In this document: piece after piece, positions 47,920 to 53,783 of the stretch
Layout of the letters: each line of letters starts with the position of its first letter
Position numbering within the stretch: the first letter of the stretch is position 1
NCBI GenBank assembly: GCA_963765495.1
Contig: CAVXWP010000007.1
Location: 512,001-576,000, forward strand
DNA from: Blastocatellia bacterium
GTDB taxonomy: Bacteria > Acidobacteriota > Blastocatellia > UBA7656
DNA: 64,000 bases
Direction: 5' to 3'
Made by a program: the position numbers and the translations under genes
Notes under the pieces: generated by a model
The model's input: only the letters and a program-made list of their open reading frames with translations
Told to the model about the DNA's origin: nothing
Database searches by the model: none

Positions 47920-50900
47920 ATGAGGGTTTCAATAAAGCGCGCAAGGCATTTGGGAAGTCTGGCAATTATTGTTGTTGGATTGGCAGGCTGGCTGGTTTTG
48001 CCGGGACTTTTAGGCCGGGCTACAACATCCGCTCATATCGGCGAACAGGGGTTGTCAAAGGGAGCACAGGTAGAGGCCGGACTCGACCCCCAACGCCAAA
48101 AAGCGCTTGAGAACCTCTATGCTCAATTTACGGCAGGCGCACCTTTTTCAAGAGAGGAATCCAATATCCTGACCAGATTTGGCGCAGGTGAGAAGATATA
48201 CGATCTTGAGGCCGATATAGTAATCTCTCGCGCGCTTTACGCTTATTACATTCTGGGCAAGGCATTGACGCGTGATCAGCAGGTTTTGCTCGACAGGTAC
48301 AGTTCAGCCGTTGCGCACCGAAACACCGATATAGCCGACCTGAAAGAACAGCTACAGCAGCGGCGCAAGGCTGCCGCCGCAAATGCGCCGCCTCGGACGA
48401 CACCCGAAGTTGCGCCCGCAAATGACACCTGCGCAGGCGCTCAGGTTGTTCCCGCCGCCGGGCCGTTTCCTTTTCTGACTACAACCGTCGATATCACCGA
48501 CGCGACAGGCACAAATGAACCGGCGCTCCCTACGTGCACGTCACCGGCATCGCCTCCCGATCCGACCGTTGTCACGCGAGGCGTCTGGTACACCTTTACT
48601 CCGTCAGCGACGGCAACCTACACCCTGGCCACCTGCGCGGAAGCGCCCACCGCTACGACGGTTGACGATACGGTTATGGCAATCTACACCTCCACGGGAG
48701 GTTGCGCCGGTCCGTTCACTCAGTTGGCGAATGATTCCGGGGATATTGACGGGTGTAACGACGACAGTTGCGTCACTTTACAATCATCATTGCAATCGCA
48801 AATAACGACGCGTCTCAATGCGAGCACTACATATTACATCGTGATCTCGCTTTATGGCTCAGACCCACCAATAACGGGCATGACAAATGTCCAGATGAGA
48901 ATTACCAAAGAGAACCCTCCTGTAAATGACACATGCGCGACAGCGCCTTCGCTATCGCTCAATACGCCTGTCACAGGGTCTTTAATAGCAGCGCAAAATG
49001 ATTATCAACTAAATAATTCAGGTTGTTTTTCAGGCGTAGGGCAGACGCCGTCAACCGCAGCGGGTCGCGATGTGGTCTATTCTTTCACAGCGCCTTCGGC
49101 GGGTACCTACTCATTCAGAGTTACAAAATATAACGGCAGCGAGAGCGATCTGGTTATGTATGCCGCAAGCACCTGTCCGGCGGCAACGCCCGGAACCCCT
49201 GTAACCGTTAGCGGTTGTCTGGGCGCATCCAATCGGTTCGTTTCCGATTTCTTTGGAGGCCCATTCTCTTCGGAGGAAATTACTTGTCTTTCGCTTACTG
49301 CGAGCCAGCAGATCTTCATATTCGTAGACCAGGATAGTTTGAGCACGGGCAGCACTTTTACCATCGAAGCGAACCAGTGTGTTCGCGAAACCGAGGCGAA
49401 TAATACTCCTGCCACAGCCAATCCTTTCGTATGCGGTATAGAAGGAAGTATTACTCCGGCAGGAGATGCGGATTTTTATTCTCTGGGGACATTTACGTCC
49501 GGCTCGCGTCTGTTTGCGCTGGTTGATGGCGTGGCCGCCAACGGGGACGATTTCGATCTGCGCGTGACCACAACCACCGACACACTTGAGTACGACGATA
49601 TAGATTCAACCGAAGCCTTTGGCGATAACTCGGGAACCGTTGCGGGTACGCCTCTAACGAGCGCGGCAACGTTTCTGAGGGTGAGCTATTTCGATCCCTC
49701 AACGGCGAGCGAGCCATATCGTGTGTACGCGGCGGTGCAACCTCCAATCGCTTCGGCTACTTCGGAAACCGAGCCGAACAACACAATAGGAACTGCCAAT
49801 TCGGCTGCGAATAACTATTTCACTGGAACGTTGAGCGGCCCGTCGCCATCGACCGATATAGACATCTATAGCTTCACGGGGCAGGCCGGAGACCTGGTAT
49901 TCATCGGTCTGGATGGCGACCCGCTTCGAAACAACACTCCGATCAATGCCAGGCTGGCATTGCTGGACTCGTCCGGCAACTTAATACTTGAAGTCAACAA
50001 CAACAATTCTTTTTCAAATACGACTTCGGGTGCGGGCAGCCTGACATCAACGACACCAAATTCGCCTGCCGAGTCTATCGTATTTCGGGTGATGACAGGA
50101 GGCACTTATTACGCGAGAGTAGCAATTGATTCATTCGCCACCGGAGCGGTTGCAAGCGGAGATTATCTGCTTTCGATAGCAAAGAATTGTACGACAGGCC
50201 CTTCGGTCAGCAATTCAATATCAGGGACGATCTCTTATTGCATCGACAACTCAAAGAAAGTCCCCAACGCCACCGTCCAGACTACCAGCGGTTCCCCTTC
50301 CGCTTCCACTACTACTAACGCCTCCGGCTTCTATCAACTCGATAACCTCGGCACTGGCCCTTACACCGTTGCTCCTTCCAAAACCGGTGCCGTCTCCGGC
50401 ATCTCTGCTCAGGATATCGGTATCCTCCGCCGCCTCGCCGCTGGCATCGATACCCCCACTCCCTGTCAATCCATCGCTGGCGATACAGATAACAACGGCT
50501 CGCTCGGCGCCCAGGACATCGGCTTCCTTCGAAGATTTGTCGCTCAACTTACTACCACTGGCATCACTGGCTCCTGGAAATTCTCTCCCGCCTCTAGGAG
50601 TTATCCCTCGCTTGTTTCAAATCAAACAAACCAGGATTACGATGCCTTGCTGATCGGAGATGTTGACGGCAACTGGACCCCCGCTGCTCCTGATCCTGCT
50701 TCATTTCAGAAGAGTCAGGCTCCTTCGGCCACTAACCTTGCCCTCTCTTTGCCCAGTGTCGTTGCTCCTCCCGGTTCTACTGATGTCTCTATCCCGGTCA
50801 TGGTTAACGGCACTCTCACAAACGGCGATTTCGTTTTGGGCTACACAATCGAGATCAGTTTCGATCCCAGCGTGCTGGTTCCACATTCGCCCTCATTCAA

Positions 50901-53667
50901 CACGACAGGGACGGTCTCATCGACCGGGGTCGTCACAGAGAACACGGGTGTGTCGGGGAGGCTCCGACTTGTGGTCGATTTCCAGAATCCGCTGATATTC
51001 ACAGGGCAGCAGACGCTGATAATATTGAGGTTCGATGTGGTAGGGACACAGGGACAGATGAGCGGGCTCAACTGGTTCTTCACGGAATTTGGGAGCGGCC
51101 CACCTGCCGTCACCACCACGACTACAAACGGCAACTTCACCGTCACAAGCCCCACTGCCGTAAAAGTCGATGCCTTCAAGGCCACGGGCTTTGACAAGGG
51201 CGTATATCTCCAGTGGCAGACCGGGTTTGAATCTACTAACCTCGGCTTCAACATCTATCGCCAGCAGGCGGGCAAACTCTCTCTTGTTACGCCTGAAATA
51301 TTGGCCGGGTCGGCGCTTTTGACAGGTGACACGCCCTTGCTTGCCGGGCGGAAATATTCGTGGTGGGATAATTCACCCGATAGTAAACAGGACGCGCTCT
51401 ATTATCTGGAAGACATTGACCTCAACGGCACAAGGAGCCTGCACGGGCCGATAGTTGCAACCAGAGCATCAGGCAATCCGCCTGCTGGCTCTCGGGCCGA
51501 GTTGTTGAGCCGGATGGGCAGAGGCAAGGCTACAATCAGCGACTACGTCGCTTCCTCCTCCCCTGGCAGCGCCCAACTGGCAACCGTTTCCTCAAAGAAA
51601 GGATTACAAAACTCCAGGCGAGAGACAGTGCCTGTTGATCTGGCGACCTCCTCTGCCATAAAGATGTGGATAGGCAATAGCGGGCTCTATCGCCTCACTC
51701 AGCCGCAACTGCTGAGCGCCGGCCTCGATTCCGGGATAGATCCGCGACTCTTGCAGATGTATGTCGACGGGCAGGAGGTTCCAATCCTTGTCACTGGCCA
51801 GGAGGACGGAAGATTTGATGCCACGGACACAGTGGAATTCTACGCTTCGGCAATCGACAGCCCGTTCACCTCGAAGCGGGTCTACTGGCTTGTGGCAGGG
51901 ACAGTGGCGGGAAGACGGATAACAAAAGTGACGAGTCCCGGGAAGGGGCAGAGCAACGCTAGTTTTACCTCGACCCTGGAGCGACGAGACAAGACGATCT
52001 ACTTTTCGAGTTTGAGGAACGGGGATGAGGAGAACTTCTTTGGGCCGGTCATAGCCTCGCAGGAAGTCGATCAGTCGATAGATGTGAAAGATATGGCAGC
52101 GGGAGGAGGAACTGGGGCAGTGCTTGAAGTGGGATTACAGGGAGTAAGTGCGGTCAACCATCGAGTAAAAGTGAGGTTGAACGGGACGGAGTTGGGAGAG
52201 GTAGATTACAGTGGGCAGGGAGCAGGAGTAGGGAGATTCACACTCTCAAGCGGGCAACTGGTGGAAGGAAGAAACGACATCAAGATGGAGGGGGTGGGAA
52301 CAGGAGGAGATGTGAGCCTGGCCGAGTATGTGAGAGTGAGCTATGAGAGGAGGTACAAGGCGGAAGGAGATGAGTTGAGATTCCGAGCAGAGGGGGGCCA
52401 GGAGGTAAAGATAGGAGGGTTCACAAGCGAACGGATACGAGTATTTGATGTAACGGAGGAAGGGAATGTAGTGGAGATAGGAGGAGCGATAGAAGAGAGC
52501 GGGAACGGGTATGAGATAGGGATCAAGGTAGGAGGAGCAGGAGAGAGAGAGATGATGGCGATAGAGGAAGGGGAGGTGAGAGAGGTAGGAGAGATGAGAA
52601 AGAACGAGGCGTCGAAGCTGAGAGCGACGAGCCAGGGAGCGGACCTGTTGATAATCACGACGGGAGAGATGGGAGGAAGTCTGGAAGGGTTGAAGGCGCT
52701 GAGACAGAGTCAGGGGATGGCGGTAGCGATAGTGAAGGTGGAAGACATCTATGACGAGTTCAGCCAGGGAGAGAAGACGCCGTATGCGATAAGAGAATTT
52801 CTGATATATGCGAAGAGGAACTGGAAGAGGAAGCCGGGATATGTGTTGATGGGAGGGGATGCGAGTTACGACCCGAAGAATTATCTGGGAGCGGGGGAAT
52901 GGGATCTGGTGCCGACGAAGTTGGTGGACACGGCGTATCTGGAGACGGCCTCAGATGAATGGATGGTGGACGAGGATGGAGACGGGATAGGAGAGATGGC
53001 GATAGGGCGACTGCCGATAAGGAGCGAGGAAGAAGGGATGAGGATGGTAGGGAAGATAATGAGTTATGAGAGAGGAGTATCGAGGAGGAGTGTGTTATTG
53101 GTATCGGATGCGAATGATGGATACAACTTTGAGCAGGCGAACGAAGAGTTGAAGGGGATGATACCGAAGGGGACGAGGATAGAAGAGGTAAAGAGGGGGC
53201 AGATGAGCGAGGAGGAAGCGAGGGCGAGGGTGATAGGAGGGATAAACGAAGGGCAGGCGATAGTGAGTTATGCAGGGCACGGGTCGGTGGATATATGGAG
53301 AGGAGAGATATTGAGGAGCGAGGATGGAGAGATAATGAGGAATGGTAATCAGTTGAGTGTATTTCTGATGATGACGTGTTTGAACGGATATTTTGAGGAT
53401 CCGATGTTGGAGAGTTTGGGAGAGGCGATGATGAAGGCGGAGAGGGGAGGAGCGGTAGCGGTATGGGGGTCGAGCGGGATGTGTGAAGCGGGAGAGCAGG
53501 CGGCAGTGAGCAAGGAGATGATGAGGGAGCTAAACAGTGTGGAGGGGTTGACGAAGAAGAAGGTGACGATAGGAGAAGCGGCGAGGAGGGCGAAGGGGAG
53601 GATAGGAGATGTGGATGTAAGGAGGACGTACGTGTTGTTGGGAGACCCGACTATGCGCCTCAGATAA
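47920..53667 (+). CDS. Secreted protein: PxNDTC and ETExNN (PPC-like) repeats + dockerin-like + cohesin-like + Ig-like + C25 peptidase domain (C25-3)
   Basis: GAGGAG RBS; PANDTC/PVNDTC, ETEANN/ETEPNN; GDTDNNGSLGAQD; ISFDPSVL; YAGHG, MTCLNG, LLGDP. Confidence 0.9.
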   Translation: MRVSIKRARHLGSLAIIVVGLAGWLVLPGLLGRATTSAHIGEQGLSKGAQVEAGLDPQRQKALENLYAQFTAGAPFSREESNILTRFGAGEKIYDLEADIVISRALYAYYILGKALTRDQQVLLDRYSSAVAHRNTDIADLKEQLQQRRKAAAANAPPRTTPEVAPANDTCAGAQVVPAAGPFPFLTTTVDITDATGTNEPALPTCTSPASPPDPTVVTRGVWYTFTPSATATYTLATCAEAPTATTVDDTVMAIYTSTGGCAGPFTQLANDSGDIDGCNDDSCVTLQSSLQSQITTRLNASTTYYIVISLYGSDPPITGMTNVQMRITKENPPVNDTCATAPSLSLNTPVTGSLIAAQNDYQLNNSGCFSGVGQTPSTAAGRDVVYSFTAPSAGTYSFRVTKYNGSESDLVMYAASTCPAATPGTPVTVSGCLGASNRFVSDFFGGPFSSEEITCLSLTASQQIFIFVDQDSLSTGSTFTIEANQCVRETEANNTPATANPFVCGIEGSITPAGDADFYSLGTFTSGSRLFALVDGVAANGDDFDLRVTTTTDTLEYDDIDSTEAFGDNSGTVAGTPLTSAATFLRVSYFDPSTASEPYRVYAAVQPPIASATSETEPNNTIGTANSAANNYFTGTLSGPSPSTDIDIYSFTGQAGDLVFIGLDGDPLRNNTPINARLALLDSSGNLILEVNNNNSFSNTTSGAGSLTSTTPNSPAESIVFRVMTGGTYYARVAIDSFATGAVASGDYLLSIAKNCTTGPSVSNSISGTISYCIDNSKKVPNATVQTTSGSPSASTTTNASGFYQLDNLGTGPYTVAPSKTGAVSGISAQDIGILRRLAAGIDTPTPCQSIAGDTDNNGSLGAQDIGFLRRFVAQLTTTGITGSWKFSPASRSYPSLVSNQTNQDYDALLIGDVDGNWTPAAPDPASFQKSQAPSATNLALSLPSVVAPPGSTDVSIPVMVNGTLTNGDFVLGYTIEISFDPSVLVPHSPSFNTTGTVSSTGVVTENTGVSGRLRLVVDFQNPLIFTGQQTLIILRFDVVGTQGQMSGLNWFFTEFGSGPPAVTTTTTNGNFTVTSPTAVKVDAFKATGFDKGVYLQWQTGFESTNLGFNIYRQQAGKLSLVTPEILAGSALLTGDTPLLAGRKYSWWDNSPDSKQDALYYLEDIDLNGTRSLHGPIVATRASGNPPAGSRAELLSRMGRGKATISDYVASSSPGSAQLATVSSKKGLQNSRRETVPVDLATSSAIKMWIGNSGLYRLTQPQLLSAGLDSGIDPRLLQMYVDGQEVPILVTGQEDGRFDATDTVEFYASAIDSPFTSKRVYWLVAGTVAGRRITKVTSPGKGQSNASFTSTLERRDKTIYFSSLRNGDEENFFGPVIASQEVDQSIDVKDMAAGGGTGAVLEVGLQGVSAVNHRVKVRLNGTELGEVDYSGQGAGVGRFTLSSGQLVEGRNDIKMEGVGTGGDVSLAEYVRVSYERRYKAEGDELRFRAEGGQEVKIGGFTSERIRVFDVTEEGNVVEIGGAIEESGNGYEIGIKVGGAGEREMMAIEEGEVREVGEMRKNEASKLRATSQGADLLIITTGEMGGSLEGLKALRQSQGMAVAIVKVEDIYDEFSQGEKTPYAIREFLIYAKRNWKRKPGYVLMGGDASYDPKNYLGAGEWDLVPTKLVDTAYLETASDEWMVDEDGDGIGEMAIGRLPIRSEEEGMRMVGKIMSYERGVSRRSVLLVSDANDGYNFEQANEELKGMIPKGTRIEEVKRGQMSEEEARARVIGGINEGQAIVSYAGHGSVDIWRGEILRSEDGEIMRNGNQLSVFLMMTCLNGYFEDPMLESLGEAMMKAERGGAVAVWGSSGMCEAGEQAAVSKEMMRELNSVEGLTKKKVTIGEAARRAKGRIGDVDVRRTYVLLGDPTMRLR

Positions 53668-53783
53668 CGGCTCTGACATTTTGAAAAGAGCGGATTATGC
53701 AAAGCAGGTTTGTATTTTGACGAATGGGGGATGTGGTATTGTCTGTTCTGGATTTACCTCGGCATAAAGTGAGAACCACCTGA

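Follow-up and report, generated by a model that had tools for sequence, protein, structure and literature searches.

What makes the last third of a bacterial gene avoid pyrimidines wherever the genetic code leaves it a choice? The gene concerned, gene 3, encodes a secreted protein that ends in a C25 (gingipain/PorU-like) module and lies in a 64,000-nucleotide stretch of DNA (the window) from a Blastocatellia bacterium (assembly GCA_963765495.1, contig CAVXWP010000007.1). The genome that holds the window is called G000 here, its contigs are C1, C2, and so on, and its relatives are G008, G015, and so on. An earlier note on the window had described a C-depleted, purine-rich block in the C25 module of gene 3 and had attributed it to strong local strand-specific mutation or selection, with an R-loop-prone G-rich transcript, deaminase exposure, or divergence that suppresses or promotes recombination between paralogous modules as candidate causes. 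We find that the block is one arm of a mirror-image pattern laid out between the edges of a 3464-nt repeat and that the same polarity recurs in other repeats of this genome and in its relatives. The strand-specific local bias and the link with recombination therefore survive from the earlier interpretation, but deaminase exposure, the R-loop as a cause, the suppression of recombination, and the uniqueness of the block do not. With somewhat better than even confidence, we read the block as a by-product of concerted evolution in which conversion between repeat copies is strand-polar and biased between purines and pyrimidines.

The block makes up the 3′ third of gene 3 and is as dominated by G and A as first described. 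Between 51890 and 53650 (1761 nt), the coding strand holds 524 A, 206 C, 739 G, and 292 T, which corresponds to a GC skew of 0.564 and a purine share of 71.7%, and the hand count of 25 G and 1 C at 53041-53100 proved exact. Sliding windows of 300 nt have a skew of 0.36-0.70 across 51950-53749. When set against 36,352 genome windows of the same length (step 200; mean skew 0.0002, standard deviation (SD) 0.057, maximum 0.570), of which 5 have |skew| ≥ 0.5, the block is about 10 SD away, in agreement with a bias that is strong, local, and strand-specific. GC content is 0.51-0.54 in the block versus 0.54 in the genome. The four-fold degenerate sites of the block (n=213) consist of A.366-.368, C.023-.024, G.594-.596, and T.014, as compared with A.149, C.355, G.325, and T.171 genome-wide. 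The reported shift to purine-ending codons was evident throughout: Gly is encoded by GGA or GGG in 75 of 77 cases, Val by GTA or GTG in 44 of 45, Ile by ATA in 24 of 28, and Arg by AGR in 34 of 39, with AGY used for 23 of 30 Ser residues. Two-fold NNY codons, for which a purine would change the residue, are near normal (C:T 41:52). The depletion of C was thus correctly noticed in that C is rare, but T is avoided too, and the block is driven by avoidance of both pyrimidines wherever the code permits, not of C alone. Because T is depleted along with C (1.4% and 2.4% at four-fold sites) and C has not been replaced by T, a deaminase signature is excluded.

The protein has been kept through this recoding, as the earlier note had stated for the frame and the catalytic motifs. 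The reading frame is open over 590 codons, and the C25 domain is whole, with a profile search matching PF01364 at 251.8 bits (cut-off 23) over profile positions 2-374 of 374. The stretches YAGHGSV and MTCLNGYFEDP, which presumably hold the catalytic His and Cys of C25, are the same in gene 3 and its closest homologue (P0003, see below) and are conserved with gene 2 too. Two antisense open frames of 234 and 296 codons, rich in Ser, Pro, and Leu, were also seen on the minus strand of the window at 52246-53650; we read them as by-products to be expected of a sense strand poor in triplets that read as stops on the opposite strand.

Homologous modules do not share the composition of the block. The C25 modules of genes 1 and 2 lack a comparable skew, as noted before (0.04 and 0.15), and their R4, which we define as the purine share at four-fold degenerate sites, is 0.23-0.74. 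A set of 110 homologous modules from other genomes and metagenomes has skews of -0.16 to +0.28. The possibility that the segment is an assembly artefact, raised in the earlier note, was addressed with an independent k-mer assembly of a public soil run (Logan contigs), in which the block is present and one 1654-nt contig spans its 5′ boundary (51391-53044, 7 differences). Because the Logan contigs carry the block, a chimera or polishing artefact is ruled out, though the run may be the assembly's own source, so that this is not independent biology. Two further runs, X2 and X3, yielded just short 90-95% pieces of the block or nothing, and the runs listed as holding it included no RNA run.

The block lies inside a repeat (Table 1), whose second copy at C1:311400-314863 forms the tail of a 1246-codon open reading frame (ORF) with a different short head. 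Homology between the copies stops 2 nt past the stop codon of gene 3. Along the gene, R4 is 0.36-0.69 in the unique head, drops to 0.0-0.18 inside the left edge of the repeat, returns to 0.32-0.72 in the middle, and climbs to 0.89-1.0 in the last 500 codons. The start of the left arm falls mid-gene, about 55 nt in from where the repeat begins, and follows codon endings that are mixed up to about 50255. Its four-fold sites (codons 775-1000, n=138) are A.087, C.464, G.072, and T.377, or 84% pyrimidine, and those of the right arm are 96% purine up to about 22 nt short of the right edge (about 53645). The composition of the left arm is the complement of that of the right arm. On either DNA strand, the repeat is pyrimidine-rich by its 5′ edge and purine-rich by its 3′ edge, and the outermost few tens of bases at each edge are unbiased.

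Table 1. Gene 3, its repeat, and the parts of the repeat, in window coordinates
Feature	Positions	Strand	Basis or description
Gene 3: 1915-aa secreted multidomain protein, C-terminal C25 (gingipain/PorU-like) module	47920..53667	+	ORF list, translation, Pfam
Unique head of gene 3, ordinary codons, outside repeat	47920..50205	+	R4 0.36-0.69 in 15 windows of 50 codons
Repeat, 3464 nt, second copy on other contig	50206..53669	.	blastn 99.48% identity, 18 mismatches, 0 gaps
Left (pyrimidine) arm, four-fold codons nearly all C/T-ending	50260..50870	+	Codon-by-codon view; GC skew -0.2 to -0.33
Neutral middle of repeat, mixed endings	50875..51889	+	R4 0.32-0.72
Right (purine) arm, the block of the earlier note	51890..53645	+	R-ending codons; AGR Arg, AGY Ser, ATA Ile; drift to G/E/R/K/M
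Peptidase_C25 domain, inside purine arm	52648..53661	+	Pfam PF01364 aa 1577-1914, E 1.6e-74
Unbiased margin at right edge of repeat	53646..53669	+	GAC CCG ACT ATG CGC CTC AGA, the last 7 codons, then stop

The differences between the two copies are themselves unevenly spread. All 18 fall within the first 1999 nt (50217-52204), leaving 0 in the last 1465 nt (52205-53669), a distribution with P = 5e-5, or 0.012 if clustered differences are taken as one event. The bias is connected with recombination, one of the links that the earlier note had drawn, but not through divergence that suppresses recombination between modules, as the block is the most homogenised part of the repeat (0 vs 18 differences). 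Within the variable portion, 11 of the 18 differences crowd into 25 nt (50595-50619) and alter 3 residues (SRSYPSL vs SKTYLSL); this cluster resembles a small patch transferred from some third sequence.

The same polarity was found in other repeats of G000, taken here as those with at least 90% identity, which account for 3.55% of the genome. In 100-codon windows taken from every stop-to-stop ORF that reaches 250 codons, and not from curated genes, R4 reaches at least 0.8 in 98 of 960 repeat windows versus 28 of 35,482 single-copy windows, and repeats hold 98 of the 126 windows of this kind. By eye, most of the 28 single-copy windows are paralogs under the 90% threshold or transposase-like ORFs. 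As an orientation-free statistic for the polarity of a repeat, the purine share of its first 300 nt was subtracted from that of its last 300 nt, both read from the assembled strand. Of 116 repeat intervals, 101 have a positive value and 12 a negative one. Among the 34 families, 28 are positive, with 16 exceeding 0.1, and 1 falls below -0.1, as compared with means of 0.0016 (SD 0.055) for random single-copy intervals and 0.017 (SD 0.047) for 2108 single-copy ORFs. The skew of the gene 3 block is outside the distribution for single-copy DNA but typical among the repeats of this genome. The check on other multi-copy modules that the earlier note had suggested thus came out positive, with the polarity shared by at least 16 of 34 repeat families, and the block of gene 3 is not unique. 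A separate genome scan for a purine at each third base was dropped as unspecific, since it catches the usual first-codon-position purines and low-complexity runs.

Apart from RVT_1 and C25, the gene names of the affected repeats were read from translations. In both copies of tuf, R4 switches from 0.2 to 0.9 at about codon 150. A radical-SAM-like gene of 711 aa, present as a duplicate, goes from an R4 of 0.0-0.15 (C.634/T.28 in the left arm) to 0.87-1.0 (G.74/A.20 in the right arm), and an IS4-like ORF has T.469/C.281 versus A.717/G.196. One- or two-armed patterns were also present in a 485-aa transposase-like ORF with 6 copies, a 447-aa ORF with 4 copies, a secreted protein of about 1460 aa with three copies, a C-terminal domain common to three giant proteins, and several further transposase-like ORFs. 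When the homology of the copies ends at the stop codon, as it does for tuf, the radical-SAM gene, gene 3, and several transposase-like ORFs, the last 5-8 codons revert to pyrimidine endings. In the C4/C6 pair, homology extends downstream and purine codons reach the stop. The ends of the pattern track homology, not genes. Two other C25-module genes (C1:125733-128617 and C1:146590-149475), which form a further pair with 93% identity across 2.9 kb, have a milder polarity, the overall skew being 0.22-0.23 with local windows to 0.5 near the 3′ end.

Since tuf is among the affected genes, codon usage tied to expression has to be considered. The ORFs beside tuf, which we read as secE, nusG, rplK/A/J/L, rpoB, and rpoC, have R4 values of 0.37-0.51, and because rpoB, rpoC, and the ribosomal-protein ORFs are among them, the polarity is not an expression effect. 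Translational codon bias of highly expressed genes and rare-codon pausing were rejected on similar grounds, with the R4 of tuf switching mid-gene and its rpoB, rpoC, and rpl neighbours being ordinary.

The relatives of G000 provide a comparison between duplicated and single loci. The radical-SAM gene was found in 39 of 41 genomes searched, and its orthologues at all 29 loci compared (one locus per relative, 29 relatives) have R4 values of 0.36-0.62 and no arms. It is duplication that the polarity depends on, rather than which gene is concerned or how strongly it is expressed. For tuf, the gradient was taken as the R4 of the last 100 codons (final 8 left out) minus that of the first 100. A rise of at least 0.35 was observed at 11 of 14 loci in other genomes of the family (9 of 11 genomes), at 1 of 8 loci in other families of the class, and at 0 of 22 loci in other classes of the phylum (range -0.16 to +0.09; two loci from unpublished genomes are left out of this phylum sample). 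The three loci of the family that do not reach this rise have purine endings along their whole length. In all four two-copy genomes, namely G000 and three relatives, the copies of tuf are homologous only within the ORF. Between genera, tuf differs at four-fold sites by 0.51-0.85 in the 5′ part and by 0.26-0.55 in the 3′ part, a divergence which indicates that the pattern is old and not the product of recent transfer.

Duplicated C25 genes behave in the same way outside G000. In G015, a 2-contig genome from another genus, two 1804-aa C25 genes arranged in tandem have heads that are 58-87% identical, and their last 2.4 kb up to the stop is 91-100% identical; R4 is 0.29-0.42 and then 0.67-0.96. 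Purine arms also occur in two more C25 genes of relatives and in one metagenome contig. The purine-rich C25 gene of G019 begins at a contig end, and its first 223 nt match the end of another contig. That of G028 has one match in an 890-contig assembly.

The recoding has reached the protein as well. Where gene 2 has TRAEFIPALDPL, gene 3 has TTGEMGGSLEGL, which is an instance of the drift to G, E, R, M, and K that had been noted originally. The closest homologue of the gene 3 head and of the block alike is P0003, a 1890-aa metagenome protein of the same architecture, and the identity of gene 3 to it is even, at 0.56-0.58, over head, arms, and middle. The direction of the replacements relative to P0003 is not even. 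In the head, 57 are purine-richer in G000 and 56 pyrimidine-richer; in the left arm, the numbers are 14 and 24; and in the right arm, 94 and 22. When replacements in the module were polarised with 55 outgroup modules, the G000 lineage had 34 purine-gaining versus 8 purine-losing changes, and the P0003 lineage had 6 versus 9. The commonest replacements in the G000 lineage are A>G, L>M, P>A, Q>E, and L>V, and P>G is among the replacements too.

The pattern to be explained is a mirror image, is tied to repeat edges, depends on duplication, recurs in relatives, and has stronger homogenisation in the arm. Its reverse-complement symmetry, the margins inside the homology edges, the neutral middle, the need for a second copy, and its greatest strength where the copies are most alike together point to recombination between copies, and not to transcription, translation, or RNA function. 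We propose that the two copies of the 3.46-kb repeat would keep correcting each other by gene conversion and that, with 3′ ends as the invading ends, the heteroduplex near each edge would have a fixed strand make-up. A transversion difference would then yield one of two mismatches, purine-purine or pyrimidine-pyrimidine, according to which copy gives which strand. If these two kinds of mismatch were handled unequally, transversions would be resolved to a top-strand pyrimidine by the left edge and to a top-strand purine by the right edge. Repeated many times, such a bias would work like long-term directional selection on transversion variants, which could saturate synonymous sites and shift right-arm residues to purine-rich codons. 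The codon-aware look of the pattern would follow because purifying selection on the protein filters the bias. We infer both the nature of the biased step, mismatch repair in heteroduplex DNA, and the strand that gets corrected.

Purine-purine mismatches are generally well repaired. Mismatch repair does discriminate among mismatches in Escherichia coli, in which C-C mismatches escape repair, T-T mismatches are among the least repaired, and G-T mismatches are repaired efficiently (PMC5416779). G000 carries MutS and MutL genes. Two strong matches to MutS domain V were seen at C9:305371-305940 and C15:170255-170818, in ORFs of 902 and 845 codons, and a weaker third match lies on C7, within an ORF of 841 codons. 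If G000 has a second MutS1-like paralog, it might be relevant to the unusual repair bias.

Several points weigh against this account. Conversion, heteroduplex, and repair bias are all deduced from sequence data. First principles do not fix the sign of the bias, which flips with the excised strand and the break start sites. The two arms of gene 3 are unequal (about 610 nt vs about 1750 nt), and 6 of the 34 repeat families, three long repeats and a 5.7-kb one included, have the opposite polarity or none. In most one-armed cases, the coding strand is the purine-rich one, a preference that hints at an additional effect of transcription or selection. In G008 and G021, tuf is purine-ended along the whole gene, though the G008 copies are homologous only over the ORF, and a whole-gene pattern of this kind is not predicted by a simple two-arm model. 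Copy numbers in the draft genomes of the relatives may be under-assembled. A search of metagenome contigs did not recover the DNA that encodes P0003; its best match was 92% over the first 557 residues only.

Another process linked to recombination would cover the same geometry, from the association with repeats and the mirror symmetry to the margins where homology ends. In recombination-linked mutagenesis, an exposed or error-prone-resynthesised strand would gain strand-specific transversions, and purifying selection would leave the synonymous ones. The known damage to single-stranded DNA consists of cytosine deamination and of purine loss with A inserted opposite the gap, both of which would make an exposed strand T-rich and C-poor. 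The pyrimidine arm is instead C-rich (C.464-.634) and the purine arm G-rich, and the proportions within purines and within pyrimidines resemble those of the genome, as they would if existing variants were sorted rather than supplied by a new mutation spectrum. We consider mutagenesis of this kind unlikely. Selection on the nucleic acid itself is an improbable alternative in which the purine-rich RNA or the pyrimidine-rich template is functional, whether through stable RNA-DNA hybrids that promote or steer recombination, escape from Rho or nucleases, or slow translation. It would sit well with the coding-strand purine excess of the one-armed cases and with the motif GGAGG, which occurs 21 times in the purine arm versus 4 times in the longer head. 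The R-loop-prone transcript proposed as a cause in the earlier note belongs here: the G excess that marks R-loop zones is present on the non-template strand of the block (GC skew 0.56), and a skew of 0.6-0.7 on that strand favours RNA-DNA hybrids. However, the same transcripts bear the opposite, pyrimidine-rich arm, and the boundaries fall at mid-gene repeat edges, not at the edges of transcripts or ORFs. Canonical G4 motifs (four runs of at least 3 G, loops of 1-7) number 0 in 51890-53645. Genes as unrelated as tuf, a radical-SAM enzyme, transposases, and secreted proteins are affected alike, single-copy orthologues lack the pattern, and highly expressed neighbours are normal.

An origin outside the genome or outside biology is less probable still. 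Recombination of the 3′ block from a donor with purine-ending codons might be suggested by the tuf genes of some relatives, in which R4 is near 0.9-1.0 over the whole gene, and by the module swapping among heads that is common in this family. This reading is very doubtful given that P0003 is closest to block and head both, with uniform identity of 0.56-0.58, that it leaves the mirror arm and the edge margins unexplained, and that the four-fold sites of tuf are saturated between genera in both halves, with nothing to suggest that transfer was recent. The least credible explanation of all is an artefact of assembly or base calling in repeats. Odd stretches do exist in repeat-rich regions of this genome, among them a 500-nt poly(A), a copy with every C as T, and a polypurine tract. 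The changes in the block nevertheless obey the genetic code, with the frame open for 590 codons, two-fold NNY codons kept, and identity to the homologue unchanged, and the polarity tracks the coding strand on both DNA strands. The k-mer assembly of the public run carries the block and spans its boundary, and the same pattern is present in independent assemblies of relatives, the 2-contig genome included.

The odd stretches are described here in their own right. At C9:40400-41080, about 700 nt with 0-1% C and about 48% T correspond to a copy of the repeat at C2:553748-554449 in which nearly every C is read as T. C before G is often deleted in this stretch, and identity to the other copy is 73% when plain and 91% with C and T collapsed; hypermutation of one strand could account for it, as could a read artefact. 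At C9:32824-33343, in a repeat-rich region with fragments of reverse-transcriptase genes near (C9:34933-35613), about 500 A follow one another without C, G, or T; this run may stem from the assembly or be what is left of a retroelement. A tract of about 700 nt at C2:165600-166300 is almost only A and G (A 0.55-0.73, T 0.01-0.07) and has no long ORF.

Two scenarios involving reverse transcriptases were also rejected. Copying back of 3′-primed cDNA is argued against by the mirror pyrimidine arm and by a bias that ends before the stop codon, not at the end of the mRNA. The target of a diversity-generating retroelement would be a short variable 3′ region that departs from a template repeat at adenines and has a reverse transcriptase close by. 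Here, the biased region is 1.75 kb, and the second copy is a full part of a gene with 18 mixed differences, none of them in the core of the arm. The reverse transcriptases found lie on other contigs than the block. Full or partial RVT_1 genes were seen at C2:554944-559267, C8:1-1892, and C9:1-1125, and to the eye they resemble those of group II introns, with an HNH-like tail. Nesting occurs among them, and some lie at contig ends, where they probably broke the assembly.

Biased gene conversion and the concerted evolution of tuf are already known, and the pattern in G000 shares features with several described systems. GC-biased gene conversion, known from eukaryotes and proposed in bacteria, is likewise recombination-linked and selection-like, shifts the composition of converted tracts, and can fix residue changes; it is confined to recombining or converted tracts, as the pattern here is bound to repeats and their edges. 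It favours G and C on both strands, however, whereas here GC content is unchanged, the choice is between purine and pyrimidine, and the sign is opposite at the two ends of the repeat. Skews of transcription or replication, the purine loading of mRNAs known as Szybalski's rule, and R-loop zones such as the immunoglobulin switch regions resemble the block in their purine and G excess on the coding, non-template strand. They span whole transcripts or replichores, in contrast to a sign that flips within a gene at a repeat edge while single-copy neighbours and the unique head stay normal. Fungal repeat-induced point mutation and deaminase hypermutation also act on repeated DNA, but by C-to-T and G-to-A transitions that destroy genes; here transversions predominate, T and C are both depleted, and the genes are intact.

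Enterobacterial tuf genes generally have uniform codon usage. The duplicate tuf genes of Salmonella undergo concerted evolution by gene conversion, with near identical copies and tracts bounded by the gene (PMC5485169), which recalls the confinement of tuf-copy homology to the ORF in G000 and three relatives; base-composition polarity goes unmentioned in the part of that report available to us. In E. coli, the outcome of mismatch repair is set by mismatch type and strand polarity, and C-C and T-T mostly escape MutS-dependent repair (PMC5416779). As far as the accessible part of that study goes, the work is experimental and does not describe a genomic footprint that saturates the synonymous sites of natural duplicates. 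In the literature searched, which left subscription journals largely outside and excluded supplements, we found no account of duplicated bacterial genes whose synonymous sites are saturated by a purine/pyrimidine-specific bias that changes sign. Outside bacteria, strand-dependent resolution of mismatches during recombination or annealing repair has reportedly been seen in a mouse-cell study (PMC9001825).

If the explanation by strand-polar biased conversion is true, a non-adaptive repair bias would override codon usage, and partly protein composition, in bacteria, even where the gene is essential and highly expressed. Bacterial genomes would carry a readable trace of heteroduplex polarity and of the preferences of mismatch repair, and the pattern would offer a natural read-out of where conversion tracts start, how far they reach, and which strand wins. 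Two-armed polarity would also mark actively converting repeats, even in draft genomes with collapsed copies. Such blocks would mimic horizontal transfer, positive selection, or functional RNA and DNA elements and would distort analyses of dN/dS, codon adaptation, and skew. For this family of soil Acidobacteria within the class Blastocatellia, we see an even chance that the genomes have an undescribed purine/pyrimidine-specific biased conversion whose sign changes along the repeat, by which any duplicated gene, even tuf, would be recoded at synonymous sites to nearly pure pyrimidine at one end and nearly pure purine at the other, with the composition of its protein pushed along.

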